Assembly: GCA_963739395.1 (NCBI GenBank)
Contig: CAVUAE010000001.1
Span: forward strand, 1,094,056 to 1,158,055
Direction: 5' to 3'
DNA: 64,000 nucleotides
DNA from: an uncultured Chloroflexia bacterium
Lineage (GTDB): Bacteria; Chloroflexota; Dehalococcoidia; Dehalococcoidales; RBG-16-60-22
In this document: piece by piece, positions 4,100 through 52,417 of the stretch
Layout: the number at the start of each line of letters is the position of its first letter
How positions within the stretch are numbered: position 1 is the first letter of the stretch
Made by a program: the position numbers and the translations under genes
Notes under the pieces: model-generated
The model's input: only the letters and a program-made list of their open reading frames with translations
What the model was told of the DNA's origin: nothing
Database searches by the model: none

Positions 4100-5077
4100 A
4101 TGAACCCTGACCTTACAGAATTATTAGACCCCGAACTAAAAGGACCTATCAAGATGATGTTAAGCCAGATGCCGCCAACCTCTTTCGACAATCTGCCTGC
4201 GGCGCGTGCCGCTTCCAAACAAATGATGGCAGCGATGAAAAATCAGATGCCAGTCATTCCAGGTGTCATTACCGAAGACAGAATAATTCCGGGTCCTAAA
4301 GGTGCTCCCGATGTAACCGTAAGAATCTATCGTCCAGAAAAACAGACTGGTTTACTTCCTGCCCTGCTCTGGATTCATGGCGGAGGCTATATGCTCGGTG
4401 AAATCGACCAGGAAGATTTTTCAGCAAAGCAATTCACGTTAGCCGGTAATTGCGTTGTCGTATCGGTAGAATACCGATTAGCTCCGGAGAATCCTTATCC
4501 AGCTCCACTAGAAGACTGTTATGCTGCTTTGAAATGGCTAGCAGCCCATACTGATGAGTTAAAGGTAGACCGTTCACGTATCGCCATCGGGGGTGCGAGC
4601 GCTGGGGGCGGACTTGCCGCTGGGCTGGCTCTTCTGGCACGCGACCGAGCCGAAGTTGAAATTATGTTTCAGTTATTAATCTATCCCATGATTAACGACT
4701 GCAATGTCACTCCTGCTAGTGATACCTTACCTGACACCCTTTTCTGGACCAGGGAAAACAATTTAATAGGCTGGCGCTCATACCTTGGCAGTAAACCTGG
4801 AGGCAAAGGAATCTCTTACTACGCAGCGGCTTTCAGAACTACCAAATTAGAAGGACTTCCTCCGGCGTATATAACTGTGGGTGACATTGACCTGTTTGCC
4901 CAGGAAGACGTTGAGTATGCACGTAGGTTAATTGCCGCCGGCGTCCCCACCGAACTTCATGTCTATCCCGGAGGCTGTCATGCTTTCGATATGCTCATCC
5001 CTGGTGCTGACATTTCTAAACGATTTACGTCCGATATACACCGGGCGTTAAAACGGGCACTTCACCAATCAGAATAA
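4100..5077 (+). CDS. Alpha/beta hydrolase, hormone-sensitive-lipase-like esterase
   Basis: HGGGY oxyanion-hole motif, GGASAGG nucleophile elbow, C-terminal CHAFD histidine. RBS AAGGAG upstream. Confidence 0.85.
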   Translation: MNPDLTELLDPELKGPIKMMLSQMPPTSFDNLPAARAASKQMMAAMKNQMPVIPGVITEDRIIPGPKGAPDVTVRIYRPEKQTGLLPALLWIHGGGYMLGEIDQEDFSAKQFTLAGNCVVVSVEYRLAPENPYPAPLEDCYAALKWLAAHTDELKVDRSRIAIGGASAGGGLAAGLALLARDRAEVEIMFQLLIYPMINDCNVTPASDTLPDTLFWTRENNLIGWRSYLGSKPGGKGISYYAAAFRTTKLEGLPPAYITVGDIDLFAQEDVEYARRLIAAGVPTELHVYPGGCHAFDMLIPGADISKRFTSDIHRALKRALHQSE

Positions 5078-6057: not shown

Positions 6058-8229
6058 TCAACTAGCAAATTGGCTAATATCCCTGTAAAGTTGTTTTAAA
6101 TGATGGTCGGATAAATCTATCAGAGGTTCATACATGAAGGAATTGAGGTGGATAGCTTCCGGTGTCATCATTATGACCCTAGACAATAGTTTTCTAGATT
6201 CTTTGTCTGACGGAAATTTCTTTACAAAGTTGTCGAATAGCACTCTCGTTTGATTTCCACTAATATCTACTGTAACCGCGGGGTCATTTATTTTTTTTAT
6301 GATTGCTTTTTCAGCTTTGAGCCTTATTGCGATTGACAAAACGATTTTATTCTCAAGGTTAATAGTTTCGACATTATTGAGACAACACTCATCCGCCTGC
6401 TGAAAAATAAGAGAAATTACTGTGGTATTATCTGAGGTGATTGAAGGCGCAGGCGTAAATATAGTTCCATAGATAGATGCTAAATCGTTTAATGTAATCG
6501 AGTCTGTATCTGATTTGTAATGGAGTAATGACGTTAACTTTAAATACTCATGGTTAGATCGCCCTTTAGTATATTCAATAATGTTACGCGCCATTGGTAT
6601 AGTAGCTATTAGACAATTTTTATTGCCAGGCAGTTGATCTTTCCAACGTGTAAATGGAGTTCTTAAGCAATCAGCTTGTACCAATTTCACTTCTGATTCA
6701 GACTTGATTGACATCAGGCAATTCTCCCAATATACAGGAAGTCGGCTTTGTACTGTTCTAAAAAAATCAAAGTTATGAGTTAACAATAGAATTAGAAATT
6801 TTTTGGTTTCCTCTATTTCTTTCAAGTATTCAATGATCGCAAATTTGTTTTTGTAGTCAAAAGAATCTGCGATATCATCTAATACTAGAATAGTTTGATA
6901 ATCCTCTGTCTCACGTGCTCTTATCTCGTAAATTATATCTAATATATACAAAGCTCTTTTCTCGCCTGTACTTAATACACTTAACAATTCCACTTTATTC
7001 ATCTCACAGCGGTCAGTGCCATCTATATAATTAAAAGTTATTTTAGGTGTAATTTCCTTAAGAATCACTTCTTCTTGATTAGCTACTTCAATTTCGAAGG
7101 GTACTGTAAAACGTTCTTTAAAAATATTGATAACCTCTCGCCAACGAGTTTCTTGACTTCTTGCCTTATTAACAATTGAATCTATTTGTTTTTTACCTTC
7201 CTTAAAAACCTCAAGAAAATTTTTATAAAGTTCCTTCTCAGAAATTAGATAAGAAATCCATAGTTTCTTTTTGAAAGTATCAACACTAGCCAATTCAGGT
7301 AAAATTTTCATATTGTCTAATAGGTATTGATGAAACTTACGAAGTTCAGCATTACCCATAATCTTGAAATCAATTGAATTAAATTTATCCTTAAGTTCGG
7401 GATTATTTAATATTCGGTTTTCCTCTTCGGAAATAACTGCATCAAAATCAGATTGCGATGTAATTTCTGTTTTTTTAGAAGATGAATCTGATAGTAAAAT
7501 AGCATGTTTAGCGGAAAAGTATTTATTAGCTTTTAGGTTTTTTGATACAGTAGATGCGTTGTAGTGATTGAAGCCACCCTTTCTGAAATAATTTGAACTG
7601 TCGATAATTTCATTGTATTTATCAATATAGTCACACAACAAGGAATGCATGCCTGGTGATTTTAAAAAGGGTTCAGTCTTATCATTTATTACTTCGGAAT
7701 AAAGAATATCAGCAAAATCTGACGATGATGAATTAACATTATCTTGTAGTTTTGATAATAATAATGAACTGTCATTTGATTTATCATCGAAAGCTGATAG
7801 CATTAGTTGTTCAGCGTTCTTTTTTGTATTAGAAACTTTACCAATAGCTGATAATAGAGTAAGTCTAGAACTTTCAATAGATTTTGCTGTTGATTCGTAT
7901 TGTTTCCTTAATTCTTCGTCTACAAGCAAAGTAGATATACGTTCAGATTCGTATTTTTCGTCATATGAGTCAACGACAAATATATGAAGAGGGTTTAAAG
8001 AGTTACCTGTTTCGTCTTTAATATTACATAGTGCTGTTCTTTGAGTATAAATAGCGTCTCTAGGTTCTCTTGATTGGCTAAGGTCATTAAATACTTTTGC
8101 AAGGGATGTTTTCATTGCACCATTGGGAGCATAGAGTAAGAATGAGTTCGCATTAGTAGTAGCAAAGTCAAATTCATGTTTAAGTGCTTTTATTCCATAA
8201 CAATTTTTCAAATCAACGGAAATTTTCAT
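6058..8229 (-). CDS. AAA_13-like ABC-type ATPase with long coiled-coil insert and C-terminal effector-like domain (PrrC/RloC-like architecture)
   Basis: Degenerate Walker A LLYAPNGAMKTSLAKVF, ABC signature LSTGEKRALYIL, Walker B ILVLDDIADSFD, H-loop LLLTHNFDFF. About 300 aa of helical, low-complexity sequence lies between Walker A and the signature motif. The C-terminal 200 aa contain RNIIE...H...H. Confidence 0.65.
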   Translation of the reverse strand: MKISVDLKNCYGIKALKHEFDFATTNANSFLLYAPNGAMKTSLAKVFNDLSQSREPRDAIYTQRTALCNIKDETGNSLNPLHIFVVDSYDEKYESERISTLLVDEELRKQYESTAKSIESSRLTLLSAIGKVSNTKKNAEQLMLSAFDDKSNDSSLLLSKLQDNVNSSSSDFADILYSEVINDKTEPFLKSPGMHSLLCDYIDKYNEIIDSSNYFRKGGFNHYNASTVSKNLKANKYFSAKHAILLSDSSSKKTEITSQSDFDAVISEEENRILNNPELKDKFNSIDFKIMGNAELRKFHQYLLDNMKILPELASVDTFKKKLWISYLISEKELYKNFLEVFKEGKKQIDSIVNKARSQETRWREVINIFKERFTVPFEIEVANQEEVILKEITPKITFNYIDGTDRCEMNKVELLSVLSTGEKRALYILDIIYEIRARETEDYQTILVLDDIADSFDYKNKFAIIEYLKEIEETKKFLILLLTHNFDFFRTVQSRLPVYWENCLMSIKSESEVKLVQADCLRTPFTRWKDQLPGNKNCLIATIPMARNIIEYTKGRSNHEYLKLTSLLHYKSDTDSITLNDLASIYGTIFTPAPSITSDNTTVISLIFQQADECCLNNVETINLENKIVLSIAIRLKAEKAIIKKINDPAVTVDISGNQTRVLFDNFVKKFPSDKESRKLLSRVIMMTPEAIHLNSFMYEPLIDLSDHHLKQLYRDISQFAS

Positions 8230-19951: not shown

Positions 19952-21112
19952 TTATTCATGAACCAGCAATGGATGTTGAGTGAAGAACCATCCTGGCCAT
20001 AAGCCTACAGATTCACTATATAATTTCGCCAGTAGTAGTTTGCCATCAACGTTAATCTGGATATCAGTAAATTGTATATTCCATGATTCCTTTGCTGAGG
20101 CAGCTATCCCGGCAGGGTCTTCAATACGCTCCTTTAAGAGCGAGACGTTCGCCTGGGCATTAGTGTCACTTTCATGATAAATAACTAAGGCGGTGTAATA
20201 TCCCTTTTCATCTTGACCAACACCAAAGCCGGAAGTGAGAAAATGTTTAAGCAGCGGACCGGGATTATCTATTTCAATGTCCTCTGGGCCGACGGTTTGA
20301 GATTCATCTCCCATAATGGCGGTGTAAGTGCCCAATCTGAATAATCCCTCGGCTAAAGAGGCGTACTCCGGCAGGTCGGCCAGACTATGACCTTGATTTT
20401 GACTGGCATCAATCATTAGCTTAACAGCCTCTACCGAAGGACCATAGAACAAATACTTATCGGTAACTGCCAGGGGCATAGCACGGCCTAACTCATCAAT
20501 ATGAGGAGGCAGCAATCTTGTAGTAAGGTGGTTCTGTAAACCATCGCCCCAGCTATGGATGGTAATGCCGCGATATTCTTCGGTAGTGTAATCCTCTTTT
20601 GCCCAAGAAGGCCATTCATCTTGATGGCTTAAGGTATCTTTGGTGGCTTGAGGGTCGAATCTACCGATAGCGGCAACTCCTATTTTCGGTGTCATGCCGA
20701 ACTGGATTTCTGCATCGACACAAGTGACATCATAGCCGATGTATTCTTTCCTATTAGTTTCCTTAATTATTGGTTCAAAGGCGAAACGTCCATAGCCGGT
20801 AATATATGAGCCTGATGCCGCTGCCATCATCACGATATCATCCTTATTAACCGCGTTGTACATATCCTCCGGCTTGGTTAAGACGATACCGGCATCTTTA
20901 TAGATACGGGCGTAATCAAGGAGGGTGAAAGAAAAAGGCATGCCTTCGCCCACCGCGGACGCTGGCACCAGATTAAGGAGTTCCATGAAAGTATTGGATG
21001 TTTCGGTTTCAGAACTCCCGTCGCAGCTAGCGAATACAGGTAGAATTAATATCAAGACGCTCAAACAAACCAGGAGACATAGGCAATGACTTAGTATCTT
21101 TTTCCTAATCAT
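19952..21112 (-). CDS. Secreted lipoprotein, function unknown
   Basis: Start chosen at MIRKKILSHCLCLLVCLSVLILILPVFASCDG, a signal peptide with a lipobox-like FASC. Confidence 0.6.
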   Translation of the reverse strand: MIRKKILSHCLCLLVCLSVLILILPVFASCDGSSETETSNTFMELLNLVPASAVGEGMPFSFTLLDYARIYKDAGIVLTKPEDMYNAVNKDDIVMMAAASGSYITGYGRFAFEPIIKETNRKEYIGYDVTCVDAEIQFGMTPKIGVAAIGRFDPQATKDTLSHQDEWPSWAKEDYTTEEYRGITIHSWGDGLQNHLTTRLLPPHIDELGRAMPLAVTDKYLFYGPSVEAVKLMIDASQNQGHSLADLPEYASLAEGLFRLGTYTAIMGDESQTVGPEDIEIDNPGPLLKHFLTSGFGVGQDEKGYYTALVIYHESDTNAQANVSLLKERIEDPAGIAASAKESWNIQFTDIQINVDGKLLLAKLYSESVGLWPGWFFTQHPLLVHE

Positions 21113-21167
21113 GGCAATGGAAATTATAAGCCCAGAGTGATGAGAAGTCAATAGAAAAGAACCTTAA

Positions 21168-21236
21168 ACCATACCGGTGAAAACCGGAATCCAGTAAAAA
21201 CAGGTAATAACTGGATCCCGTTTTTCAACGGGATGG
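21168..21236. repeat. Structured intergenic repeat, copy 1
   Basis: CCATACCGGTGAAAACCGGAATCCAGT...ACTGGATCCCGTTTTTCAACGGGATGG, forming three small hairpins. Second copy at 37105-37172. Confidence 0.8.
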
Positions 21237-21266
21237 GGTTGAGGGAAAAAGGGGAGGATAAAACGA

Positions 21267-21608
21267 TTATTTTTGTGAAGTTACACTTTTTGATTTAGCG
21301 TATAACTCTAGAAGTTTGAACATCTGATCAAGATGAAACTGAATTCTGCCATTCTCATAATCTGGAATTTTACTAATGATAAATCCGGGTTTTCCCTTAT
21401 TTTTTCCACCTATGCCAAATCGTTGTTCTTTGTCTTTAAGCGCCATTTTGTTTATATAATCGAGTGTTTCTCTAGCTGCAATACTTAAAGCAGTGGAGTA
21501 CATCTGTTTATAAAGCTTATCAATCTCTCCCTTATCAAATAGTTTCTTAATATTTAAGCTCAAGTTTCCTATGATATTTTCTACTATGTTTATTCTAGGT
21601 GAAACCAT
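21267..21608 (-). CDS. AT-rich hypothetical protein (113 aa) immediately downstream of nrdJ
   Basis: Starts 10 nt after the nrdJ stop on the same strand. Codon usage and composition differ visibly from nrdJ. No recognisable motif. Confidence 0.55.
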   Translation of the reverse strand: MVSPRINIVENIIGNLSLNIKKLFDKGEIDKLYKQMYSTALSIAARETLDYINKMALKDKEQRFGIGGKNKGKPGFIISKIPDYENGRIQFHLDQMFKLLELYAKSKSVTSQK

Positions 21609-21618
21609 ATTTTACCTC

Positions 21619-24219
21619 TTAGCACTTCGTATACCCGCAAGCCGGGCAGTGGTAGCAGCCTTCCTGGAAAACAAGCAGATTTTGACATTCCGGACATTGT
21701 TTTAACTGCCCGACCATGGTTTTTGAAAGTCCATAGTCCTCGGTCTTGGGCTTATCGCCGCCGTTGATGTGCTTTTCCAGTACGCTGGCAATAGCATCGG
21801 CGCAAGAAAGGATAGACTTACCTTGTTCCCAAGCAATAGTAGGGCAGCGAATACCGCGCAGCTGCTTTACTACCTGAGCCACATCTACTCCTGAACGTAA
21901 GGAAAGAGAAATTAGGCGGCAAATAGCTTCTAGTTGTGCTGATGCACAACCGCCGGACTTACCGAGGGTGGAAAATACCTCAAAGATGCCCTTGTCATCG
22001 TAATTAACAGTAATATATAAAGAGCCGCAGCCGGTATTGACCTTGGTTGAAGTCCCTTTAATTTCAGTAGGTCGCTTGCGCGGGGTACGGCTGACGGGGT
22101 CTTCGGCTGGTTTTTCTGGTTTTTTGCCGGTGGTCAGCACCTGGCTATCCCGCGAGCGGTCACGGTAGATAGTGATGCCTTTAAGTCCTTCTTCATAAGC
22201 GAGCATGTAAGCGTGGGCGATATCATCACGGGTGGCGGACTGGGGGAAGTTGATAGTTTTGGAGACGGCGTTATCGGTCGAGCGCTGGAAAGCCGCCTGC
22301 ATTTTCACATGCCATTCCGGGGTGATTTCATGGGCGGTGACGAATACACGCTTAATATCATCGGGTACATTCTTGATGTCGGCTAAATGCTCGCCTTCCG
22401 CCAGCTTTTTCATCAGTTCGTCGGAGTAAAAGCCGCCTTTTTTCGCTGCGTCTTCAAAATAGGGATTTACCTCAACGAAGGGCGTACCGTCGAGAACGGT
22501 TTTAGTGTAACTCAAAGCAAAGAGAGGTTCGATGCCGCTGGAACAGCCGGCAATCATGCTTAAGGTGCCGGTGGGGGCGATGGTGGTGCGGGTGGCGTTG
22601 CGTACTTTAGGTCCGTTAGGCACATCATAAATACTGTCCTTAAAAGCCGGGAAAGTACCCCGCTCCTTTGCCAGCTCTACCGAGGCTTTAAAGGCTTCCT
22701 CACCGATAAAACGCATTAGTTTTTCTGCAACGTCAAGCGCTTCCTCGGAGTTATACGGCACGCCAAGCATCACCAGCATATCGGCAAAGCCCATGATGCC
22801 CAGGCCGATTTTACGCGTCTTTTTAGTCATTTCCTCTATCTGGGGCAGGGGGAATTTATTAACATCAATAACATTATCCAGGAAACGGATGGCTGTTTTA
22901 ACTGTTCTCGCTAGCTTGGGGTGGTCGATTTCGTAGCCGCCGCCCTTCTTTTTCATCATGCGGGAGAGGTTAATAGAAGCCAGGTTACAGGACTCGTAGG
23001 GGAGTAGAGGCTGCTCGCCGCAGGGGTTAGTGCTTTCAATTCTACCGAGATGCGGCGTAGGATTAGCCTCGTTAATGCGGTCGATGAAGATAATCCCAGG
23101 GTCTCCCGTGCGCCAGGCCATGTCCACGATTTTTTCGAAGACCACTTTAGCGTTGAGCTTGCCGGTGACCTCTTTAGTATGGGGATTGATTAATTCATAA
23201 TCGGCGCCTGCCTTGACCGCTTCCATATAGTCCGCTGTCAAAGCCACAGAGAGATTGAAATTAGTCAGCGCGGTCATTTTTTCTTTAGCGGTGATGAACG
23301 TCATAATATCGGGATGATTGATGTTCAGGATGCCCATGTTAGCGCCCCGCCGCGTACCACCCTGCTTGGTGACGTCGGTGACGGTATCGAAGGCGCGCAT
23401 GAAGGAAACCGGTCCGCTGGCGACGCCGCCGGTAGAGCCGACCACATCGTTTTCCGGGCGAAGACGGGAGAAGGAAAATCCCGTGCCGCCGCCGCTTTTA
23501 TGAATAAGCGCGGTGTATTTCACGGCGTCAAAAATAGACTCCATGGAGTCTTCGACAGGGAGGACGAAGCAAGCGGAAAGCTGCCCCAGCTTTTTACCAG
23601 CATTCATCAACGTGGGAGAATTAGGGAGGAATTCCAGATTGTACATCAGCTTGAAAAAGTCATCTTCAACAGATTTAGCATTAGCTTTAGGACTATAAAT
23701 TAACTCCGCGGCAGCGATGGCTTTGGCTACCCGTCGGAACATTTCTTCCGTTGTTTCTATAATTTTACCTTTGCTGTCTCTTAATAAGTAGCGTCTTTCC
23801 AGCACCTGTCGAGCTGTGTCGGTCAGGCCATTAGCAGTGATTGTGTCTTTAGGATTTTTTACTTCGGTTTCGGTGTCCATTTCGGCTTTGACCTCCTCTA
23901 CTGGCGTTGGTACTGGTTCCGCTTGGGGTTTTTCGGCATTAAGCACTTCCATCACCATGGCTTCGATTTCCGCTTCGGTGGGCATTCTGCCGTGGGGAGC
24001 CTGGCGAGAATGTCGGTCCACCAGTTCCTCCATGCCCGGCAAAGTGGGCAATGCTTGCGACTGCGCTCTTTCCAGTCGCTCAATAACCTGCCCTGTCAGT
24101 TTTTCCACGAGCTTACGGTCGCGGATACCCATGGCGGCGGCGTTATCGAAGACGATGCGCGCTATCTGACTTCGATTAACGGAAGAAGCGTTCCTCTTGC
24201 CGGCGTGATTATTCAACAC
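21619..24219 (-). CDS. nrdJ: Class II (adenosylcobalamin-dependent) ribonucleotide reductase with an N-terminal extension of about 140 aa and a C-terminal Zn ribbon
   Basis: LERRYLLRD, SACFVLPVEDS, NPCGEQPLLPYESCNLASINL, TIAPTGTLS, C-terminal CPECQ...CYHCPACGYTKC. GTG start with AAGGTAGGAG RBS. Confidence 0.93.
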   Translation of the reverse strand: MLNNHAGKRNASSVNRSQIARIVFDNAAAMGIRDRKLVEKLTGQVIERLERAQSQALPTLPGMEELVDRHSRQAPHGRMPTEAEIEAMVMEVLNAEKPQAEPVPTPVEEVKAEMDTETEVKNPKDTITANGLTDTARQVLERRYLLRDSKGKIIETTEEMFRRVAKAIAAAELIYSPKANAKSVEDDFFKLMYNLEFLPNSPTLMNAGKKLGQLSACFVLPVEDSMESIFDAVKYTALIHKSGGGTGFSFSRLRPENDVVGSTGGVASGPVSFMRAFDTVTDVTKQGGTRRGANMGILNINHPDIMTFITAKEKMTALTNFNLSVALTADYMEAVKAGADYELINPHTKEVTGKLNAKVVFEKIVDMAWRTGDPGIIFIDRINEANPTPHLGRIESTNPCGEQPLLPYESCNLASINLSRMMKKKGGGYEIDHPKLARTVKTAIRFLDNVIDVNKFPLPQIEEMTKKTRKIGLGIMGFADMLVMLGVPYNSEEALDVAEKLMRFIGEEAFKASVELAKERGTFPAFKDSIYDVPNGPKVRNATRTTIAPTGTLSMIAGCSSGIEPLFALSYTKTVLDGTPFVEVNPYFEDAAKKGGFYSDELMKKLAEGEHLADIKNVPDDIKRVFVTAHEITPEWHVKMQAAFQRSTDNAVSKTINFPQSATRDDIAHAYMLAYEEGLKGITIYRDRSRDSQVLTTGKKPEKPAEDPVSRTPRKRPTEIKGTSTKVNTGCGSLYITVNYDDKGIFEVFSTLGKSGGCASAQLEAICRLISLSLRSGVDVAQVVKQLRGIRCPTIAWEQGKSILSCADAIASVLEKHINGGDKPKTEDYGLSKTMVGQLKQCPECQNLLVFQEGCYHCPACGYTKC

Positions 24220-24252
24220 AGCTCCTACCTTAATAACAGCAATTCCATTTAT

Positions 24253-25080
24253 CTATCCATCTAAAAAAGAAAGAGATACAATATATCTATTTACTCCGTA
24301 CCCAAACCCTTTTATTTCAGAAGGGAAACGTTTTTTCCCCTTACCGAACTTATATTGTAAATCTCCCTTTAGCAGTGTATTGAAATTGTAGGCATCATGT
24401 AATATAGAGGGTGGATTTACGTTTTTATTTAATGGTGAAAATAAAGTATTACCAATCTTTTTCTTCTTAGGCCATGATAACTGAAGTGAATTTGGTTGGT
24501 TTTTACGTGGTGTCCATTTTGAAACATAACAAGGTTTTTGACTAGTTTCAGAGACTCTTATTGCAGCTGATTGTATTGAGACTTTGAATAAATCAGCCAA
24601 ACGCTCAATAGATTGTATTGACGTTCCTAGTTCATCTAAGTATTTGCTAAACACTGATGTTGGCATCAATAACTCTGTGGCAGCCTCATCACATAGTTTT
24701 TCTACGACTTTAGAACGTTTTCTTTGTACAACTTGCGGATTGAATGTCCTGTGTTCAATAGTATTTATATATTGTTCCAATTTTAACGCACTATATAATA
24801 AATGTCCGATTTCATGGGCACAAGAAAAATTTTGTCTTACCAAAGGGTCATTTATATTTAGTTTTATTTTAGATCCACTATCAAATCGTAGAAGGACACC
24901 TCCAGATTTACCCGCTTTGCCAAGGTCCGTTTTTTCAATGCTTTGAACTCCAACTAAAGAAGCATATTCTTCTGATAAAAATGGTGGGTTATCATGCCCT
25001 CTTTTGGCTATCAACTCGGTTACAAGCTGTCGCGCCCGTTCAATAATTAGTTCAGAAGCTGTTTCTAACTTAATAACCAT
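24253..25080 (-). CDS. ImmA/IrrE-family (COG2856-like) zinc metallopeptidase with an uncharacterised C-terminal domain
   Basis: HEXXH motif in FSCAHEIGHLLYS, followed by the downstream EAATELLMP typical of ImmA/IrrE. About 95 aa of unknown C-terminal sequence. AT-rich. Confidence 0.75.
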   Translation of the reverse strand: MVIKLETASELIIERARQLVTELIAKRGHDNPPFLSEEYASLVGVQSIEKTDLGKAGKSGGVLLRFDSGSKIKLNINDPLVRQNFSCAHEIGHLLYSALKLEQYINTIEHRTFNPQVVQRKRSKVVEKLCDEAATELLMPTSVFSKYLDELGTSIQSIERLADLFKVSIQSAAIRVSETSQKPCYVSKWTPRKNQPNSLQLSWPKKKKIGNTLFSPLNKNVNPPSILHDAYNFNTLLKGDLQYKFGKGKKRFPSEIKGFGYGVNRYIVSLSFLDG

Positions 25081-25082
25081 AA

Positions 25083-25421
25083 TTACTTTTCGTATTTTGA
25101 CATATAGTCGTTTATCTGCTGCTCTTTTAAAGGAATGAGTTTCTTCATTTCTTCATCCATTACTAAGTCAATAGGATCTTTGTTTTGTCTTCCTTCTACT
25201 CCATATAGAGCTCGGATAAGACTCTTACGTTGGGCATCATTTGTTGTTTTACGTGGTTCATGTATACAACTGTGTAGCACTTCTTTTAAGGAATAAGGAA
25301 GATAATCATATTTTTTTATTGGTATTTTATAATACCCGAACCACAGTCTAATGTCTTGCCATAACGTTCTTTTTGTGATTTGCCTATGTGTCTTTTTATT
25401 GATAAATTCTTCTATCTCCAT
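25083..25421 (-). CDS. AT-rich hypothetical protein (112 aa), partner of the ImmA-like gene
   Basis: Its stop lies 2 nt from the ImmA-like start. RBS GGAG before ATG 25421. No obvious HTH seen by eye. Confidence 0.55.
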   Translation of the reverse strand: MEIEEFINKKTHRQITKRTLWQDIRLWFGYYKIPIKKYDYLPYSLKEVLHSCIHEPRKTTNDAQRKSLIRALYGVEGRQNKDPIDLVMDEEMKKLIPLKEQQINDYMSKYEK

Positions 25422-25465
25422 GTTTCACTCCAGACAAGATATTACATGCTTTATTATTATAACAT

Positions 25466-26002
25466 TCATCGCCGCTTCCTCCGCGGGGGCTTTGTCTTTT
25501 TTACAGGCATTTCGTCTTGCTTAAAGAGGGGGAGCTGGTCGGCGGGGGGTAAAGGGGCATGGTCGGCGAGGTCATCCACTTCTTCCTTGAGCGTAGTGAT
25601 ATCTTCAAACTCGCGATAAACGCTGGCGAAGCGGATATAAGCAATATGGTCAGTCTTTTTAAGTTTTTGCATAACAAGGTCACCGATATAAAAACTAGCA
25701 ATTTCGGCATGGCCGGACTGATAAAGCTTGCCTTCTATTTCGTCAACGAGCTTATTTACAGTACCGGAGGGTAGAGGTCTTTTTTCGCAGGCTTTACGGA
25801 TGCCCGCTAGTAACTTCTCGCGGTCGAACTCCTCACGGCGTCCATCCTTCTTAATGACAAAAAGACTGGCGCGCTGCAAGCGCTCGTAGGTGGTGAAACG
25901 CAAGTCACACCGCAGACACTGGCGTCGGCGGCGGACACCGTCGTTCACGTCGCGCGAGTCGATTACCTTGGAGTCGTTATAGCCGCAGAAGGGGCAGTTC
26001 AC
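25466..26002 (-). CDS. nrdR: Transcriptional repressor NrdR (Zn ribbon + ATP-cone) with an extended basic C-terminal tail
   Basis: CPFCGYNDSKVIDSR...RRRRQCLRCDLRFTTYE Zn ribbon, followed by an ATP-cone. GTG start with GGAGG RBS. Tail ...PVKKTKPPRRKRR. Confidence 0.93.
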   Translation of the reverse strand: MNCPFCGYNDSKVIDSRDVNDGVRRRRQCLRCDLRFTTYERLQRASLFVIKKDGRREEFDREKLLAGIRKACEKRPLPSGTVNKLVDEIEGKLYQSGHAEIASFYIGDLVMQKLKKTDHIAYIRFASVYREFEDITTLKEEVDDLADHAPLPPADQLPLFKQDEMPVKKTKPPRRKRR

Positions 26003-26012
26003 CTGCCGACCT

Positions 26013-26067
26013 CCACAAATTATTGTATCGAGGTCTATAATTTACCACTACAGGTTGTGTTTGTCAA
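26013..26067 (-). promoter_or_regulatory. nrdR operon promoter with two tandem NrdR-box-like palindromes
   Basis: Boxes CCACAAATTATTGTAT (26013-26028) and CCACTACAGGTTGTGT (26045-26060) each match about 12/16 of the remembered consensus acaCwAtATaTwGtgt and are spaced 32 nt apart. Reverse-strand TTGACA (26062-26067) - 17 nt - TAAATT (26039-26044) overlaps box 2. Confidence 0.5.
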
Positions 26068-26157
26068 TGGGGTCTCACGTGTGAAACATGTTAAAATATT
26101 ATTAAAATTTTTACTTTACCGCAATACCGCAATAGGCTATGATTATTTTGAAGAAAA

Positions 26158-27474
26158 ATGATGAACTACCAGCAAGCTCTGGACTATTTATTGAAGTTCG
26201 CTGATTATGAGCGCCTGCCGCGCTCGGGAATTGTGTGGGACCTGAAGCGTATCGAACGACTGCTGGCAAGACTGGATAATCCGCAGAACTTCGCGCGGTC
26301 GGTACATGTAGCGGGGACGAAAGGGAAGGGCAGCACTTCTGCGATGATAGCGTCGATTTTGCATAGTGCCGGTTATAAAGTGGGACTTTATACCTCCCCC
26401 CACCTCCTCTCTTACACAGAACGCATACAAGTTAACGGCAAGCCCATCGCCGAGGCAGACTGGGCGAAGCTGGTTGAAATTATACAGCCGCATGTCGAAG
26501 CGGAGAATGCGCTGGGCGACCTCGGGCAATTAACGACTTTTGAAATTTTTACGGCGATGGCGTTCCTCCATTTCCAGCGAGTGAAGGCGGACTGGCAGGT
26601 GCTGGAGGTGGGCTTAGGGGGACGGCTCGACGCCACGAACGTAATCCAGCCGCAGGTGTGCGTGATAACGTCCATCAGCTTCGACCACATGGACGTACTG
26701 GGGGATACGCTGGCGAAAATAGCCGGGGAGAAATGCGGCATCATCAAGCCGGGGGCGGATGTCGTGACCGCGCCGCAGTTCCCGGAAGCTCTAGAGGTCA
26801 TCAAGCGGGTGTGTACGGAAAAGAACGTCCGCCTGATAAAAGTGGGGCAGGACGTTACATGGGAGAGGGTTGGCTTTAATCAAAAGGGGCAGAGTTTCCG
26901 CGTGAAGGGACTGAAGGGAAAATATAAGTTAAGGATTCCACTGCTGGGTTTGCACCAGCTGGAGAACGCCGCCAATGCCGTCGCCGCCGCGGAACTGCTC
27001 CAGGAAAAAGACGCGAAGATATCATCCAAAAACATCGCCGAGGGACTAGCCAAAGTGGACTGGCCGGGTCGCTTACAGGTCTTGAGGAAAAAGCCGTGGG
27101 TCGTCGTCGACGGGGCGCATAACGCTTACTCGATGAAGCGACTGGTCGAGGCGATAGAGGAGTATTTTAAGTACGACAAGGTGAAGCTGATTTTAGGGTT
27201 CGGGGCGGATAAAGACATAGCGGGCATGGCGGCGGAGGCGGCGGAATTAACGAGCGACATCATCCTGGTGGCGTCCAAGCACCCGCGGGCGGTAAAGGCG
27301 GAGGCTTTAGTAGCCGAGTTCCAGAAGCACCGGGTGACGCCGCGCTTGGCGGAGAGCGTAAAGGACGCGATGAAACTGGCGCTGGGGGAGGCGGGACCTA
27401 AAGACCTTATCTGCGCGGCGGGGAGCATCTTTGTGATTGCCGAGGTGATGGAGGGATTTAAAAACCCTCTCTAA
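26158..27474 (+). CDS. folC: Bifunctional folylpolyglutamate synthase/dihydrofolate synthase
   Basis: HVAGTKGKGST P-loop, GLYTSPHL, LEVGLGGRLDATN, DGAHN motifs. Confidence 0.92.
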   Translation: MMNYQQALDYLLKFADYERLPRSGIVWDLKRIERLLARLDNPQNFARSVHVAGTKGKGSTSAMIASILHSAGYKVGLYTSPHLLSYTERIQVNGKPIAEADWAKLVEIIQPHVEAENALGDLGQLTTFEIFTAMAFLHFQRVKADWQVLEVGLGGRLDATNVIQPQVCVITSISFDHMDVLGDTLAKIAGEKCGIIKPGADVVTAPQFPEALEVIKRVCTEKNVRLIKVGQDVTWERVGFNQKGQSFRVKGLKGKYKLRIPLLGLHQLENAANAVAAAELLQEKDAKISSKNIAEGLAKVDWPGRLQVLRKKPWVVVDGAHNAYSMKRLVEAIEEYFKYDKVKLILGFGADKDIAGMAAEAAELTSDIILVASKHPRAVKAEALVAEFQKHRVTPRLAESVKDAMKLALGEAGPKDLICAAGSIFVIAEVMEGFKNPL

Positions 27475-27541
27475 CTCTCCCTTTACAAAAGGGAGAGGAT
27501 GAATTTTTACTCTTTCGTAAAGAGGAACCAAGGGAGTTTTT
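27460..27541. repeat. Direct repeat A flanking the DUF559 gene
   Basis: AAAAACCCTCT..CTCTCCCTTTACAAAAGGGAGAGG...CTCTTTCGTAAAGAGG.A.CAAGGGAGTTTTT contains two hairpins. A near-copy lies at 27897-27985. Confidence 0.8.
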
Positions 27542-27896
27542 ATAAATTGTTAAGCTTTTGTTCAATTACTTCAATTACACCATCAATATTGTTGAATATA
27601 TCTATATTCGTGAACCTTAGAACTGTTAATCCCATACTCTCTATAAACTCATCTCTGATCCAATCGTATTTTTTTGTATTGTTGGAAAAATGTTGTCCAC
27701 CATCTACTTCAACCACTAACATTGCTTTATGGCAATAGAAGTCAGCAATATATTCTCCCAAAGGCTTTTGACGTGAGAACATAAAACCTTTTAGCTGTTT
27801 CATCCTAAGCTTAGACCACAATAATTTTTCAGCATCTGTCATGTTGTTTCTAAGTTCTTGGGATAGCTGCTTCAATTTTGGGTTATATAGATGCAT
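27540..27896 (-). CDS. DUF559 (Vsr-like endonuclease fold) protein
   Basis: LRNNMTDAEKLLWSKLR...GFMFSRQKPLGEYIADFYCHKAMLVVEVDGGQH matches the DUF559 pattern. Confidence 0.85.
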   Translation of the reverse strand: MHLYNPKLKQLSQELRNNMTDAEKLLWSKLRMKQLKGFMFSRQKPLGEYIADFYCHKAMLVVEVDGGQHFSNNTKKYDWIRDEFIESMGLTVLRFTNIDIFNNIDGVIEVIEQKLNNL

Positions 27897-27985
27897 AAAA
27901 ACCCTCTTTTGTCTCCCTTTAAAAAAGGGAGAGGTAATTCCTTTTCCGTCTCCCTCTTTCGTAAAGAGGGATAAAGGGAGTTTTT
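27897..27985. repeat. Direct repeat B flanking the DUF559 gene
   Basis: Same two-hairpin unit as 27460-27541, in the same orientation. Confidence 0.8.
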
Positions 27986-27990
27986 CTAAC

Positions 27991-28014
27991 GCCGAGGTGA
28001 TGGGGGGGTTGAAA
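27991..28014. repeat. Second copy of the folC 3' terminus
   Basis: GCCGAGGTGATGGGGGGGTTGAAA against folC's GCCGAGGTGATGGAGGGATTTAAA at 27439-27462 (21/24 identical). The two copies bracket repeat A, DUF559 and repeat B. Confidence 0.75.
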
Positions 28015-28023
28015 CATGCAAAA

Positions 28024-28926
28024 TTACTTCAGTCCTAACGGAAGATAATTAGCTACAAATCGATATGTATCTGCACCTGAATCCGTAGTTTCAATTTTAT
28101 TATGGAAAAATGAATGAATAAAATTTATTGTTGAATCATTTATATTATAGGTTGTACCAAGAATTCTTTTATTTGATAAATCGGCATTATTAATAAGTAA
28201 TTTTAGAGTTGTTTGATCATACCCAAAACCTATAAACACAAGATTAAAAGCATCTCTTATTGCTGCTTGAGCATCACGGAAATCATTTGTATCATCTAAC
28301 CGATCTGATGTAATTCTGATACCTTCCGCAGCATTTTTAAGTATTCCCGCAACACTAAAACTCTCTCCGTAGTTTATTTCTGGATAACGGCCAAGACTTC
28401 CATGAGCATGTATAATTTTAAGAGTAGCTAGTTTTTGCGTGGCATGTTGGGTTAAGTCATCTGGGCAGTTATACTGTATATTTTTGTGTAAAAAGTGTTC
28501 TAGTGATCTATCGTAATTTAAAGTAACAAACACAATATTATTCGCATTTGGTTTATTATTTTCAAAATCTAACACATTGTATAAATGACTATACCAATCT
28601 TTTTGAGGAAATAAATAATCTGTTCTTTCGAGAGGTAATAATGTATAGGCTATTGCATATGCACCGATTTCTCTAAATTTGCTCTTTTTTTCAAGAAATA
28701 TATCTATTGTTGGATAACTAGTGTATTTTAAAGCTTCAGCGAAATTGTCGGCAAGTAAATTGTCAAATTTATTATGTGCAAGAGTATTAACGTGATTTAT
28801 ATTGATTCCAGAGATCATTATGGTTTTAAGTTCTGTACCTAATGGTAGGCCATAAGGTTTACTCGCTCTAGCCCCAAGAACAAATACTGTCTTTTTATTA
28901 AGATCGATTGGTTGTATTTCTACCAT
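28024..28926 (-). CDS. Stand-alone SIR2-like (SIR2_2 / ThsA-type) protein, putative NAD+-consuming effector
   Basis: Four blocks are collinear with the ThsA SIR2 domain: VFVLGARASKPYGLP (GAGxS loop), VTLNYDRSLEHFL (TTNYD), IIHAHGSL (catalytic His), VFIGFGYDQTTL. Very AT-rich. ATG 28926 lies 3 nt after the ribD stop, with SD GGAGGAG inside the ribD 3' end. Confidence 0.7.
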   Translation of the reverse strand: MVEIQPIDLNKKTVFVLGARASKPYGLPLGTELKTIMISGININHVNTLAHNKFDNLLADNFAEALKYTSYPTIDIFLEKKSKFREIGAYAIAYTLLPLERTDYLFPQKDWYSHLYNVLDFENNKPNANNIVFVTLNYDRSLEHFLHKNIQYNCPDDLTQHATQKLATLKIIHAHGSLGRYPEINYGESFSVAGILKNAAEGIRITSDRLDDTNDFRDAQAAIRDAFNLVFIGFGYDQTTLKLLINNADLSNKRILGTTYNINDSTINFIHSFFHNKIETTDSGADTYRFVANYLPLGLK

Positions 28927-51166: not shown

Positions 51167-52417
51167 TTAAGTTCGATTTAAAACTTGAAAGCCATTTCCT
51201 CGAGGAAGATAGTTTAATTCAAATGAACTTGGTAAAGGATTTTGAGCATTGTTATTCCTAATACAAAACAGTTGCCACCACAGTGTTTGATTCGAATCAT
51301 TGGGATTGATATTTTTCTTTTGAATTATTTGGTGCCATATAACAACGCCACTCACTAAGGGTGCGGATTTTAGAGCTTGAGCTATACTTTGACCGAGATT
51401 GAAAAACTGATTTAGACCGTAGAAATCGGGCGTGTATAAATAAATCACAGCAGGAGAGTTTTGTGTCAATTGTTTACGTGCATCATTAATAAGGTCATAT
51501 ATGGCATTAACATGATCAGGGGTTATTTCAAAATGTACGACAACAACTTTAGGATTTCGGTAATAAATTAAACCATTACGATTTTCCTTGTGACATTTAT
51601 GGCATATTCCTACATAAGTAGTTTGATTACCTACACCACAATTAATCATAAAATTCCTAATTGGCTCAGGAACATGTTCTTCTGGACCGAAAGGTTCGAA
51701 TGCGGTTGTTACTATATCTTTATCGTTAGGTAAGAGAATAGTTGTTTCAACTTCGAAGCTACCAATAGAACAAGAAAAAGCCTCACCTTTTAGTAATAAT
51801 GCCTCTATACTTCTCACAAGATTAGGGATGACAGTTTTATTTGGTATTTGTTTTGTTGATATATATATCCCGTAATTAGTAGTTGAGTGGTCTAATAAGG
51901 AACTAACAAGGGAAATTATTTCTGAACGCATATCATCAATCAGAATAAATTGTGGTGTTATAATGTTTCTTGCTTTACATTCGATATATGCAGGAAGTCC
52001 TCCAATAGATATTTCAAAGTCAGGCGTGGCTGATTTACCAGCTTTTAATGAAATAATGGGTTGTTTTAGTATATTTACGTAAGACCAAGCAACTGTTGCT
52101 TCTATTTCCGTAGCACAAAATTCCGCAATGGATTGTTTTGACCGTTTTATAAGTTGGTTAAAGAAGACATCATCGGTGATAACTTTTCCATCTGAACGAC
52201 GAGTCGGAAAATTAGATAATTCTCGCATAATCTTGGAGAAACTCAAAGCCCTTACTATATCTTGATTTACACTCGGATCTTTAGACGCATATAGAGCGCG
52301 TTTTAAGGGATGCATTTTTTCTTTGCAGTTATTGTTCCACTGTGGACCAAGCTGTACTTTCAGCCATTTTAAGAGAGTATTTACATCGGCATTTTCAGTA
52401 TCAATTAAGTAGTTCAT
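51167..52417 (-). CDS. AT-rich orphan protein with a PD-(D/E)xK nuclease-like motif
   Basis: 416 aa. E(x)n...TPDFEISIGGLPAYIECKARN fits the E...PD...ExK pattern. The rest is unrecognisable. Flanked by AT-rich non-coding DNA. Confidence 0.5.
   Translation of the reverse strand: MNYLIDTENADVNTLLKWLKVQLGPQWNNNCKEKMHPLKRALYASKDPSVNQDIVRALSFSKIMRELSNFPTRRSDGKVITDDVFFNQLIKRSKQSIAEFCATEIEATVAWSYVNILKQPIISLKAGKSATPDFEISIGGLPAYIECKARNIITPQFILIDDMRSEIISLVSSLLDHSTTNYGIYISTKQIPNKTVIPNLVRSIEALLLKGEAFSCSIGSFEVETTILLPNDKDIVTTAFEPFGPEEHVPEPIRNFMINCGVGNQTTYVGICHKCHKENRNGLIYYRNPKVVVVHFEITPDHVNAIYDLINDARKQLTQNSPAVIYLYTPDFYGLNQFFNLGQSIAQALKSAPLVSGVVIWHQIIQKKNINPNDSNQTLWWQLFCIRNNNAQNPLPSSFELNYLPRGNGFQVLNRT

Follow-up and report, generated by a model that had tools for sequence, protein, structure and literature searches.

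Proteases of the COG2856 group are known from pairs in which the protease is encoded beside an XRE-type helix-turn-helix (HTH) partner. The subject of this work is such a pair, consisting of a metalloprotease of the IrrE/PprI/CapP type ("ImmA-like") and a small protein termed orf112, encoded inside the nrdR-nrdJ ribonucleotide reductase operon of an uncultured Chloroflexia bacterium. The DNA analyzed was a 64,000-nucleotide stretch of contig CAVUAE010000001.1, here called the window, whose coordinates are used throughout; related loci retrieved in the searches carry labels of the form L### or P###. In the radiation and desiccation response of Deinococcus, the protease is IrrE (PprI) and the partner is DdrO, which represses its own gene (PMC6868357). 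In the ImmR/ImmA pairs of ICEBs1 and phages, an M78 HExxH peptidase is encoded beside an XRE-type repressor that it inactivates; ImmA has no GAF-like domain, and the cut in both DdrO and ImmR falls in the loop that links the final two helices (PMC6868357). In the CapH/CapP pair, single-stranded DNA (ssDNA) activates CapP, and CapH binds the promoter of the operon it controls and is cut within its two-helix C-terminal dimerization domain. About a third of CapP proteins have a cysteine switch between HExxH and the third zinc ligand. CapP R90 and IrrE R85 are among the residues that bind ssDNA (PMC13228613).

The window pair is encoded on the minus strand between nrdR and nrdJ. The nrdR gene (25466-26002, minus strand) encodes a 178-residue repressor with a zinc ribbon and an ATP-cone (TIGR00244 at the equivalog level, E = 3.5e-56; PF22811 and PF03477), and nrdJ (21619-24219, minus strand) encodes an 866-residue B12-dependent ribonucleotide reductase with a TSCPD domain (NF006417, 1220 bits; PF02867, PF00317, and PF12637). 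The protease gene (24253-25080, minus strand; 275 residues) was assigned from matches to PF06114 and to capP of PADLOC and from Foldseek. The gene on its 5' side, orf112 (25083-25421, minus strand; 112 residues), is predicted to encode a diverged XRE-HTH-like N-terminal domain followed by two C-terminal helices; partners of this kind are referred to as type A. A literature search returned no account of an nrd operon that contains a COG2856/XRE pair, in keeping with an earlier sequence-only reading of this DNA that had held the arrangement to be unusual. The data suggest that a conserved pair of this kind within the nrd operon of a whole bacterial class is a previously undescribed arrangement.

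Comparison with described systems

The window pair resembles DdrO/IrrE in the three-domain fold of the protease, its zinc ligands, and its ssDNA-contact arginine, and also in being a chromosomal pair, not on a mobile element, in which the protease adjoins an XRE-type partner. Distant relatives of the window protease in other phyla (L043, L051, and L054) adjoin DdrO-like partners. Unlike DdrO, the partner in the nrd operon is short (94-127 residues) and strongly diverged, and the type-A profile gave no alignment with a DdrO-like partner. Unlike DdrO/IrrE, the pair is enclosed in the nrdR-nrdJ operon with its NrdR boxes, has no visible operator of its own, and exchanges its partner among close relatives. 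DdrO-type partners have a three-helix C-terminal dimerization domain, and a DdrO regulon is marked by a common operator motif that also occurs at the promoter of the partner. The pair was not assigned to DdrO/IrrE, as its partner is not of the DdrO kind; besides the NrdR boxes, no candidate regulon motif was seen upstream of nrdR.

The likeness to CapH/CapP consists of the best defense-library match (capP), a structural match to CapP (7t5t), the retention of the ssDNA-contact arginine, and a partner of about the size of CapH with an HTH domain and a two-helix C-terminal domain. Unlike CapH/CapP, the pair adjoins, in more than 100 loci, the genes for a housekeeping ribonucleotide reductase and the repressor of that enzyme rather than a cyclic oligonucleotide-based antiphage signaling system (CBASS) or other defense operon. 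Unlike the cysteine-switch CapP proteins, the window protease has no cysteine at residues 94-126, the segment of the switch loop. The pair was not assigned to CapH/CapP because it has neither a defense neighbor nor the cysteine switch.

An M78 HExxH peptidase encoded beside an XRE-type protein is a feature shared with ImmR/ImmA. Unlike the ImmR/ImmA pairs of mobile elements, the window protease has a GAF-like domain, and the pair occupies a fixed chromosomal nrd position with varying outer flanks and has no viral relatives. For these two reasons, the GAF-like domain and the location off mobile elements, the pair was not assigned to ImmR/ImmA.

Two further systems share single features with the locus. 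In nrdR-nrdJ operons such as that of Streptomyces (the nrdRJ operon, which we take as the comparison case), nrdR and nrdJ share a transcript whose promoter is overlapped by tandem NrdR boxes, as is probably also the case here. Unlike those operons, the operons of the loci found here keep two extra genes and have an NrdR with a QLPL tail and an NrdJ with an N-terminal extension. The Mycobacterium tuberculosis regulator presumed to be PrpR (6cyy and 6cz6) likewise combines an IrrE-like fold with a GAF-like domain and serves the regulation of core metabolism rather than a mobile element, as would the pair described here. We take PrpR to be a ligand-sensing transcription factor in which an HTH is fused to an IrrE-like module; unlike PrpR, the window has the HTH-like protein as a separate gene product and an intact peptidase site.

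Operon layout and transcription signals

Five genes lie on the minus strand, and their open reading frame (ORF) coordinates give gaps of 44, 2, 33, and 10 nucleotides (nt) between nrdR, orf112, the protease gene, nrdJ, and the small gene orf113, as the sequence-only reading had listed them. Upstream of nrdR is a promoter-like site (26039-26067, read from 26067 to 26039 on the minus strand) with TTGACA, a 17-nt spacer, and TAAATT, which matches at 10 of 12 positions and has a TG before the second hexamer. NrdR box 1 (26045-26060) is placed between the -35 and -10 hexamers and has 2 mismatches to ACACNANATNTNGTGT; in related loci it reads a(c/t)ACTAtATATTGTGG. NrdR box 2 (26013-26028; 3 mismatches) is in the leader, 32 nt downstream of box 1. 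Both box-like sites overlap the promoter-like site, forming tandem boxes about three helical turns apart as in NrdR-regulated operons. The layout of -35, NrdR box, and -10 was found 5' of nrdR in 29 related loci (30 with the window); box 1 is kept in 29/29 of these, and a second box at about 30-32 nt scores in 7/29.

Inspection by eye of the regions 5' of nrdR in the 29 related loci showed no other conserved element, and the candidate of a second operator near the operon promoter was accordingly rejected. Because nothing but the NrdR boxes is conserved there, the partner is deduced to have no visible operator at its own promoter.

A sequence scan of the minus strand between nrdR and nrdJ found no terminator-like site. 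Inside the cassette, weak promoter-like matches were found together with one unconserved extended -10-like element, TGTTATAAT, which was read from the sequence just 3' of the nrdR stop (25464-25456, minus strand); nothing else there was promoter-like. The sole promoter conserved across related loci is the NrdR-box promoter 5' of nrdR. In the related loci the spacers 5' of the small ORF are short and contain ribosome-binding sites, and in a second gene order described below, the start of the small ORF is at most about 20 nt from the nrdJ stop. The short gaps, the ribosome-binding sites, the lack of an internal terminator, and the conserved NrdR-box promoter therefore support one NrdR-controlled transcript. 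From these signals, the cassette is very probably co-transcribed with the nrdR-nrdJ operon, which agrees with the earlier view that it is embedded in the operon and transcribed through; neither a terminator on the operon strand nor a conserved internal promoter isolates it from the nrd genes.

Conservation of the pair in nrd operons

The first two relatives inspected (proteases 51% and 67% identical) had the order nrdR, small ORF, protease, and nrdJ, with ftsZ versus folC on the outer flank. A scan of species-representative genomes gave 54 loci, 31 of which had a full-length protease (29-68% identity; Dehalococcoidia/Chloroflexota). The nrd genes were on the same strand in all 31 of these loci. 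The order was nrdR-partner-protease-nrdJ in 27 and nrdR-nrdJ-partner-protease in the other four (L037, L039, L040, and L041), which are among the most distant. The second order shows that the small ORF moves with the protease and that the pair stays in the operon. An ORF of 94-127 residues was found directly 5' of the protease in every locus checked. The remaining distant matches had partial protein coverage, came almost entirely from other phyla, and had no nrd neighbors; several of them adjoin DdrO-like partners.

Metagenome contigs gave 322 stretches encoding relatives, the best 80 of which were examined. Among these 80, nrdJ was found downstream in 66 of the 74 with an informative flank, and seven of the eight misses have a flank of at most 176 nt; when more than 180 nt of downstream sequence was present, nrdJ was found in 66/67 loci. 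For nrdR, the corresponding upstream count was 50/56 with an informative flank, and it was found absent at two loci, L070 (by inspection) and L095 (by tblastn). The possibility raised in the sequence-only reading, that homologous cassettes might never accompany nrd genes elsewhere, was thus answered by a co-occurrence almost without exception.

Protease distances were correlated with NrdJ distances (Spearman 0.63; Mantel p of about 5e-4), as strongly as NrdR distances were with NrdJ distances (0.56). No relatives were found in viral contigs; a phage origin was rejected on this basis, and by the same result orf112 does not belong to a prophage remnant, a possibility named in the sequence-only reading.

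Three of the related loci have individual features. A stand-alone pair (L127, the same place as L147-L149) has ATTCGA three times within 4400-4600, twice as part of GATTCGA, close to a TGGTATAAT -10-like element. These repeats may be the operator of the stand-alone pair itself; a single sequence cannot define a site. The protease gene of L038 (6065-6704) appears to carry a frameshift that divides it between two ORFs. The full nrdR-partner-protease-nrdJ order is also present on the 2.1-kb contig L029, whose Altiarchaeota label probably results from mis-binning.

The protease

The assignment of the protease is supported by the following data. The match to PF06114 (Peptidase_M78) had an E value of 5.7e-14 and 52.4 bits against a gathering cut-off of 22, and the best defense-library match was capP of PADLOC (2.6e-23). 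A search of 5.8 billion proteins returned 470 relatives; the best 120, which were examined, had full-length coverage at 48-71% identity and came mostly from Dehalococcoidia or Chloroflexota metagenomes. An exact look-up of the window protease sequence returned no record.

The zinc-binding and catalytic motif HEIGH (residues 89-93; 24802-24816, minus strand), already recognized in the sequence-only reading, is accompanied by E127 as the third zinc ligand. In 25 aligned protease sequences H89, E90, H93, E127, R82, C87, C130, C184, and W189 were invariant. The segment vRqnFscAHEigH aligned with eRqrFtlAHEisH of IrrE and gRmrFtqAHElgH of CapP, which places R82, the one residue of the groove that was mapped by this alignment, at the ssDNA-contacting arginine (CapP R90 and IrrE R85). 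E127 aligned with the glutamate of the IrrE segment IETLC, which we take to be the IrrE zinc ligand. Judged from these alignments, the zinc site of the protease is intact.

An AlphaFold2 model built with the alignment of 25 sequences had a mean predicted local distance difference test score (pLDDT) of 90. When the whole protein was used in Foldseek, it matched IrrE (3dte; E = 1e-11, template modeling (TM) scores 0.61/0.67), ssDNA-bound PprI (8sln), and CapP (7t5t). These matches extended over 268-305 columns (268-275 for IrrE and PprI with the 275-residue query), gaps included in both counts, at TM scores of 0.58-0.70. Transcriptional-regulator structures of M. tuberculosis (6cyy and 6cz6) were also matched (E of about 3e-8). 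By sequence, the match to the solved CapP chain was weak (E = 0.023). The C-terminal 95 residues (181-275; 24256-24540, minus strand), beta-rich over 184-272 in the model and previously regarded as a domain of unknown kind, were assigned from the whole-protein matches to the GAF-like domain of IrrE/PprI/CapP. According to the model, the protein is a full IrrE/PprI/CapP-type protease consisting of a zinc peptidase, a helical linker, and a GAF-like domain.

Three of the invariant residues are cysteines. C87 (24814-24822 region) is two residues before H89, C130 (24691-24693) is three residues after E127, and C184 is encoded at 24529-24531. A redox or metal-sensing role for these cysteines is conceivable.

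The partner protein

For orf112 no family match was obtained in Pfam, NCBIfam, or the defense library, and word-based searches gave only two relatives, later nine, because the partner evolves too fast for that index. Among the related loci, the partner ORFs were of three types, namely A (window-like), B (ending in PPPAMPPRQGNFWD), and C (a plain XRE-type HTH), and these align collinearly. In the combined A2 partner set of 28 members, which includes all three types, Pfam matches were to HTH_31 (8), HTH_26 (7), and HTH_3 (5). The profile of the 28 partners had its best match among solved structures in the XRE-type HTH chain 7t5u (E = 3e-6), presumably the N-terminal domain of CapH, and also matched an immunity repressor, SinR, and the 434 repressor.

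In hhalign, type A aligned with types B/C at a probability of 97% (E = 8e-11; 91 collinear columns). The type-A profile alone found no HTH among solved structures; the type B/C profile aligned with a DdrO-like partner over the HTH domain only. The hhalign result and the HTH matches within the combined set led to the assignment of orf112 to the partner family. From these profile comparisons orf112 is a strongly diverged homologue of the XRE-type partners and not a replacement of the HTH partner, as had been supposed.

The AlphaFold2 model of orf112 (pLDDT 74) has helices at residues 20-30, 36-39, 43-53, 62-73, 84-92, and 100-110, of which four fall in the region of the HTH domain and two are C-terminal. 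The predicted layout, which is that of the XRE-type partners, is an HTH-like domain followed by two terminal helices that are joined by a conserved proline-containing loop at residues 93-99.

Exchange of the partner

When the DNA of L015 and L016 was compared, identity was 85-98% over the nrdR core and the protease gene; in a segment that spans the NrdR tail, the small ORF, and the protease gene up to about its tenth conserved codon, it was 30-58%. The same pattern was found for L014/L017, L016/L019, and the window versus L006; a control pair of the same partner type was 93-98% identical in the exchanged segment. Where the proteases were at least 83% identical, the partners were either 85-94% or 9-12% identical, a bimodal distribution. 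In the metagenome sample, type A was found in 35 of 67 loci and type B in 32.

The NrdR tail and the NrdJ extension

The extended C-terminal tail of NrdR, which the sequence-only reading had pointed out, was borne out as residues 149-178 (25469-25558, minus strand). These residues lie beyond the region that aligns with solved NrdR chains, and E. coli-type chains have no such tail. It contains the motif QLPLF and an acidic stretch followed by a basic one. QL[PS]L[LIF] was present in 24 of the 29 NrdR tails found (L006, L011-L041, and the window), and the near variants QPPLL, QPLLL, QLLLL, and QLPLP made up the other five; the form is QLPLF in the window and QLSLF in L011 and L033. By sequence the motif is similar to the beta-clamp-binding motif QL[SD]LF. 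The Streptomyces NrdR chain in the solved-structure set has 195 residues, was aligned over residues 1-147, and is therefore also longer than the core.

The N-terminal extension of NrdJ (residues 1-126; 23842-24219, minus strand) lies outside the family model, as the match to NF006417 starts at residue 127. It was kept in 20/20 aligned loci, some rows being without the first residues. Its consensus is AESMGIxDR..E.LT.QVIERLE...LPGME.LV followed by basic residues; it includes the motif LPGME and matches no family. A motif PL.P.E.L that by eye seemed common to the NrdR tail, the NrdJ extension, and the partner C-tails was rejected by a profile test: the profile of 29 NrdR tails, run against 1672 ORFs, raised only NrdR proteins above noise.

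Base composition

The GC content was 0.33-0.37 over 24150-25450 and 0.32 over 21300-21600, versus about 0.50 for nrdR and nrdJ. At third codon positions (GC3) it was 0.24 for the protease gene, 0.29 for orf112, and 0.27 for orf113, versus 0.59 for nrdR and 0.57 for nrdJ, in accordance with the earlier description of the three genes as AT-rich. The contrast resides mostly in synonymous or third codon sites. Across loci the partner-protease pair had a GC content of 0.33-0.50 regardless of that of the flanking nrd genes (0.46-0.65). In comparison with the orthologues of L011, divergence of both orf112 and the protease gene was highest at third codon positions, and both are therefore deduced to be real, conserved coding sequences. 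The AT-richness was not taken as the mark of a recent insertion because the pair is conserved across a bacterial class and the protease distances track those of NrdJ.

Proposed function and alternatives

Bacterial ribonucleotide reductase is controlled through nucleotide pools (by NrdR), metals, and oxygen. To our knowledge, feedback of DNA damage or stalled replication on the supply of deoxynucleoside triphosphates (dNTPs) is poorly understood beyond a few model organisms. A replacement of LexA by the pair was considered, and a literature search gave nothing bearing on it; Dehalococcoides has a LexA. The interpretation we favor, with a confidence only slightly above even, is that the pair is a domesticated COG2856/XRE switch of the DdrO/IrrE and CapH/CapP kind that, by analogy with those systems, would sense ssDNA and couple replication stress to ribonucleotide reductase. 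Being controlled by NrdR, the pair would be made at low dNTP levels, when NrdR leaves the promoter, together with NrdJ. On stalled replication or DNA damage, ssDNA would occupy the groove between the peptidase and GAF-like domains, and the activated protease would inactivate orf112 by a cut in the loop that links its two final helices. Once orf112 is lost, ribonucleotide reductase, and possibly other targets as well, would change in expression or activity; candidate targets of orf112 are a DNA operator elsewhere, the NrdR-box promoter, or a protein. The outcome would be a dNTP supply that answers DNA stress as well as nucleotide pools.

A sensor of the IrrE/CapP kind, switched by ssDNA in those systems and kept in the reductase operon across a class of abundant subsurface and sediment bacteria, is a concrete candidate for such feedback, and the class-wide position of the pair suggests an undescribed link between DNA-damage sensing and DNA-precursor supply. 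The arrangement also extends COG2856/XRE pairs past mobile elements, defense, and the Deinococcus radiation response into a core metabolic operon. The exchange of the partner like an allele cassette, with the protease staying in place, bears on how these proteases recognize their substrates.

Several observations weigh against this interpretation. The activation by ssDNA and the cleavage of orf112 are both drawn from analogy with IrrE/DdrO and CapP/CapH. DdrO and CapH act at the promoters of the genes they control, that of DdrO itself included, and no such site was visible here; in the related loci the distance from the -35 hexamer to the nrdR start is largely filled by the NrdR-box region, with no room for a separate operator. 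The element TGTTATAAT at 25464-25456 is a possible internal promoter, albeit one that is not conserved in the closest relative. By itself orf112 matches no HTH model and may no longer bind DNA, and a structure search with its model gave no match at E <= 0.001. Partner types that are about 10% identical have been exchanged between lineages whose proteases are about 84% identical, and no protease position was found to co-vary with the partner type, the highest mutual information being 0.26 of 1.0 bit; exchange without co-variation of the protease is unexpected for a specific protease-substrate pair. One stand-alone pair has msrA and a patatin gene as neighbors, and the 6-10 kb of flanking sequence read to each side of it contain no nrd gene. 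The codon composition of the pair in the window is that of accessory genes, with a GC3 like that of the islands encoding DUF559 and SIR2-like proteins. Two features are left without explanation: the low GC3 of the pair, even though protease distances track NrdJ distances, and the exchange of the partner between close relatives.

Some of these features would be accounted for if the pair were a selfish or conflict element, that is, a type II toxin-antitoxin pair of a COG2856 toxin with an Xre antitoxin or a defense regulator, which has settled in an operon too essential to be lost. The partner would diversify in an arms race, phages that manipulate the dNTP supply being one possible opponent, and any effect on the reductase would be secondary. 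We regard this as unlikely, but as the best of the alternatives. It fits the capP match in the defense library, the GC3 of 0.24-0.29, which is like that of the neighboring DUF559 and SIR2-like islands, and the exchange of the partner types as discrete cassettes with bimodal identities and near-equal frequencies (35 type A and 32 type B). The stand-alone pair is also consistent with it, as is the frequent occurrence of COG2856/XRE pairs in mobile elements and beside toxins (PMC6868357). However, no effector or toxin gene accompanied the pair in more than 100 loci, where nrdR and nrdJ were the sole constant neighbors, and no viral relatives and no integrase among the genes called in the inspected loci were found. 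The tracking of NrdJ distances by the protease, and the fact that the pair remains in the nrd operon even at a changed position, likewise argue against a conflict element.

The protease might instead act directly on an nrd protein, either the NrdR tail or the NrdJ extension, in place of or besides orf112, which would then be an adaptor, inhibitor, or decoy; in this general form the explanation, which takes up the hypothesis of a protease-antirepressor switch from the sequence-only reading, is judged quite doubtful. A more specific version, to which we give a little more credence while still thinking it unlikely, has an ssDNA-sensing protease that would act on NrdR by way of the QLPL tail, cutting or releasing this repressor, or would process the NrdJ extension, the exchangeable protein being an adaptor, decoy, or inhibitor and not a DNA-binding repressor. 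Direct proteolysis of NrdR or NrdJ would parallel, in bacteria, the eukaryotic checkpoint that removes reductase inhibitors and repressors in response to DNA damage. Candidate target sites are provided by the 30-residue NrdR tail beyond the core, with its conserved QLPL motif, and by the conserved extension of about 126 residues that NrdJ has outside the family model. The NrdR tail falls within the same exchanged segment as the partner gene in several close-relative pairs, the operon promoter has no space for a separate operator, and the protease does not co-vary with the partner type, all of which count in favor of an nrd protein as the target. Against this, the NrdR-tail profile raised neither the NrdJ extension nor the partner tails above background, the NrdR tails of L016 and L023 are similar despite different partner types, and the stand-alone pair has no nrd neighbor. 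In addition, every studied COG2856 protease acts on its XRE partner, and the length of the Streptomyces NrdR implies that this clade may not be alone in having a tail.

A recent chance insertion or prophage remnant, functionally unrelated to nrd, would fit the AT-rich composition and the frequency of ImmA-type proteases in prophages (PHROGs matches) but is hardly credible given the same arrangement in 31/31 species-representative loci and nearly all metagenome loci with differing outer flanks, the lack of viral relatives, and the codon-position divergence of conserved coding sequence in both genes.

orf113 and the probable end of the operon

The small AT-rich gene orf113 (21267-21608, minus strand) matches no family and is probably co-transcribed with nrdJ in the window, as indicated by the 10-nt gap. 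It was absent 3' of nrdJ in related loci, so that the three-gene set proposed in the sequence-only reading was reduced to the partner and the protease; by this comparison orf113 is outside the conserved unit and has no link to nrd elsewhere. Its 49 representative homologues of about 100 residues, none of them in a named family, share invariant Y33, R88, and H92, and the homologue P0131 sits among unrelated, uncharacterized genes. Weak matches to the mitochondrial ribosomal protein uS10 (best E = 5e-4) were considered spurious.

The operon likely ends within 21174-21234 (minus strand), where a perfect 8-bp hairpin, ATCCCGTT-GAAA-AACGGGAT (21234-21215), is followed by a terminator-like site (21187-21174). 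After this site is a strong promoter-like site of the next gene (21151-21123, minus strand; 11 of 12 matches). Rfam gave nothing credible as an RNA element in 20500-27000.

Other AT-rich stretches of the window

A second AT-rich island (27540-28926; GC content of about 0.30-0.34) lies just past folC and has the appearance of a small defense island. Its products are an endonuclease-like DUF559 protein (PF04480, 1.4e-36) and a SIR2-like one (PF13289, 4.8e-7; SIR2 matches in PADLOC). The AT-rich stretch at 6058-8229 (GC content of 0.30-0.34) encodes a 723-residue protein, which may be an accessory or defense ATPase; its sole match, to SMC_N, was below threshold (1.3e-5, 25.2 bits against a cut-off of 40). 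An AT-rich ORF of 416 residues (51167-52417), with no match in Pfam, is located between an SPFH/Band 7 gene and an AIR-synthase-related gene.

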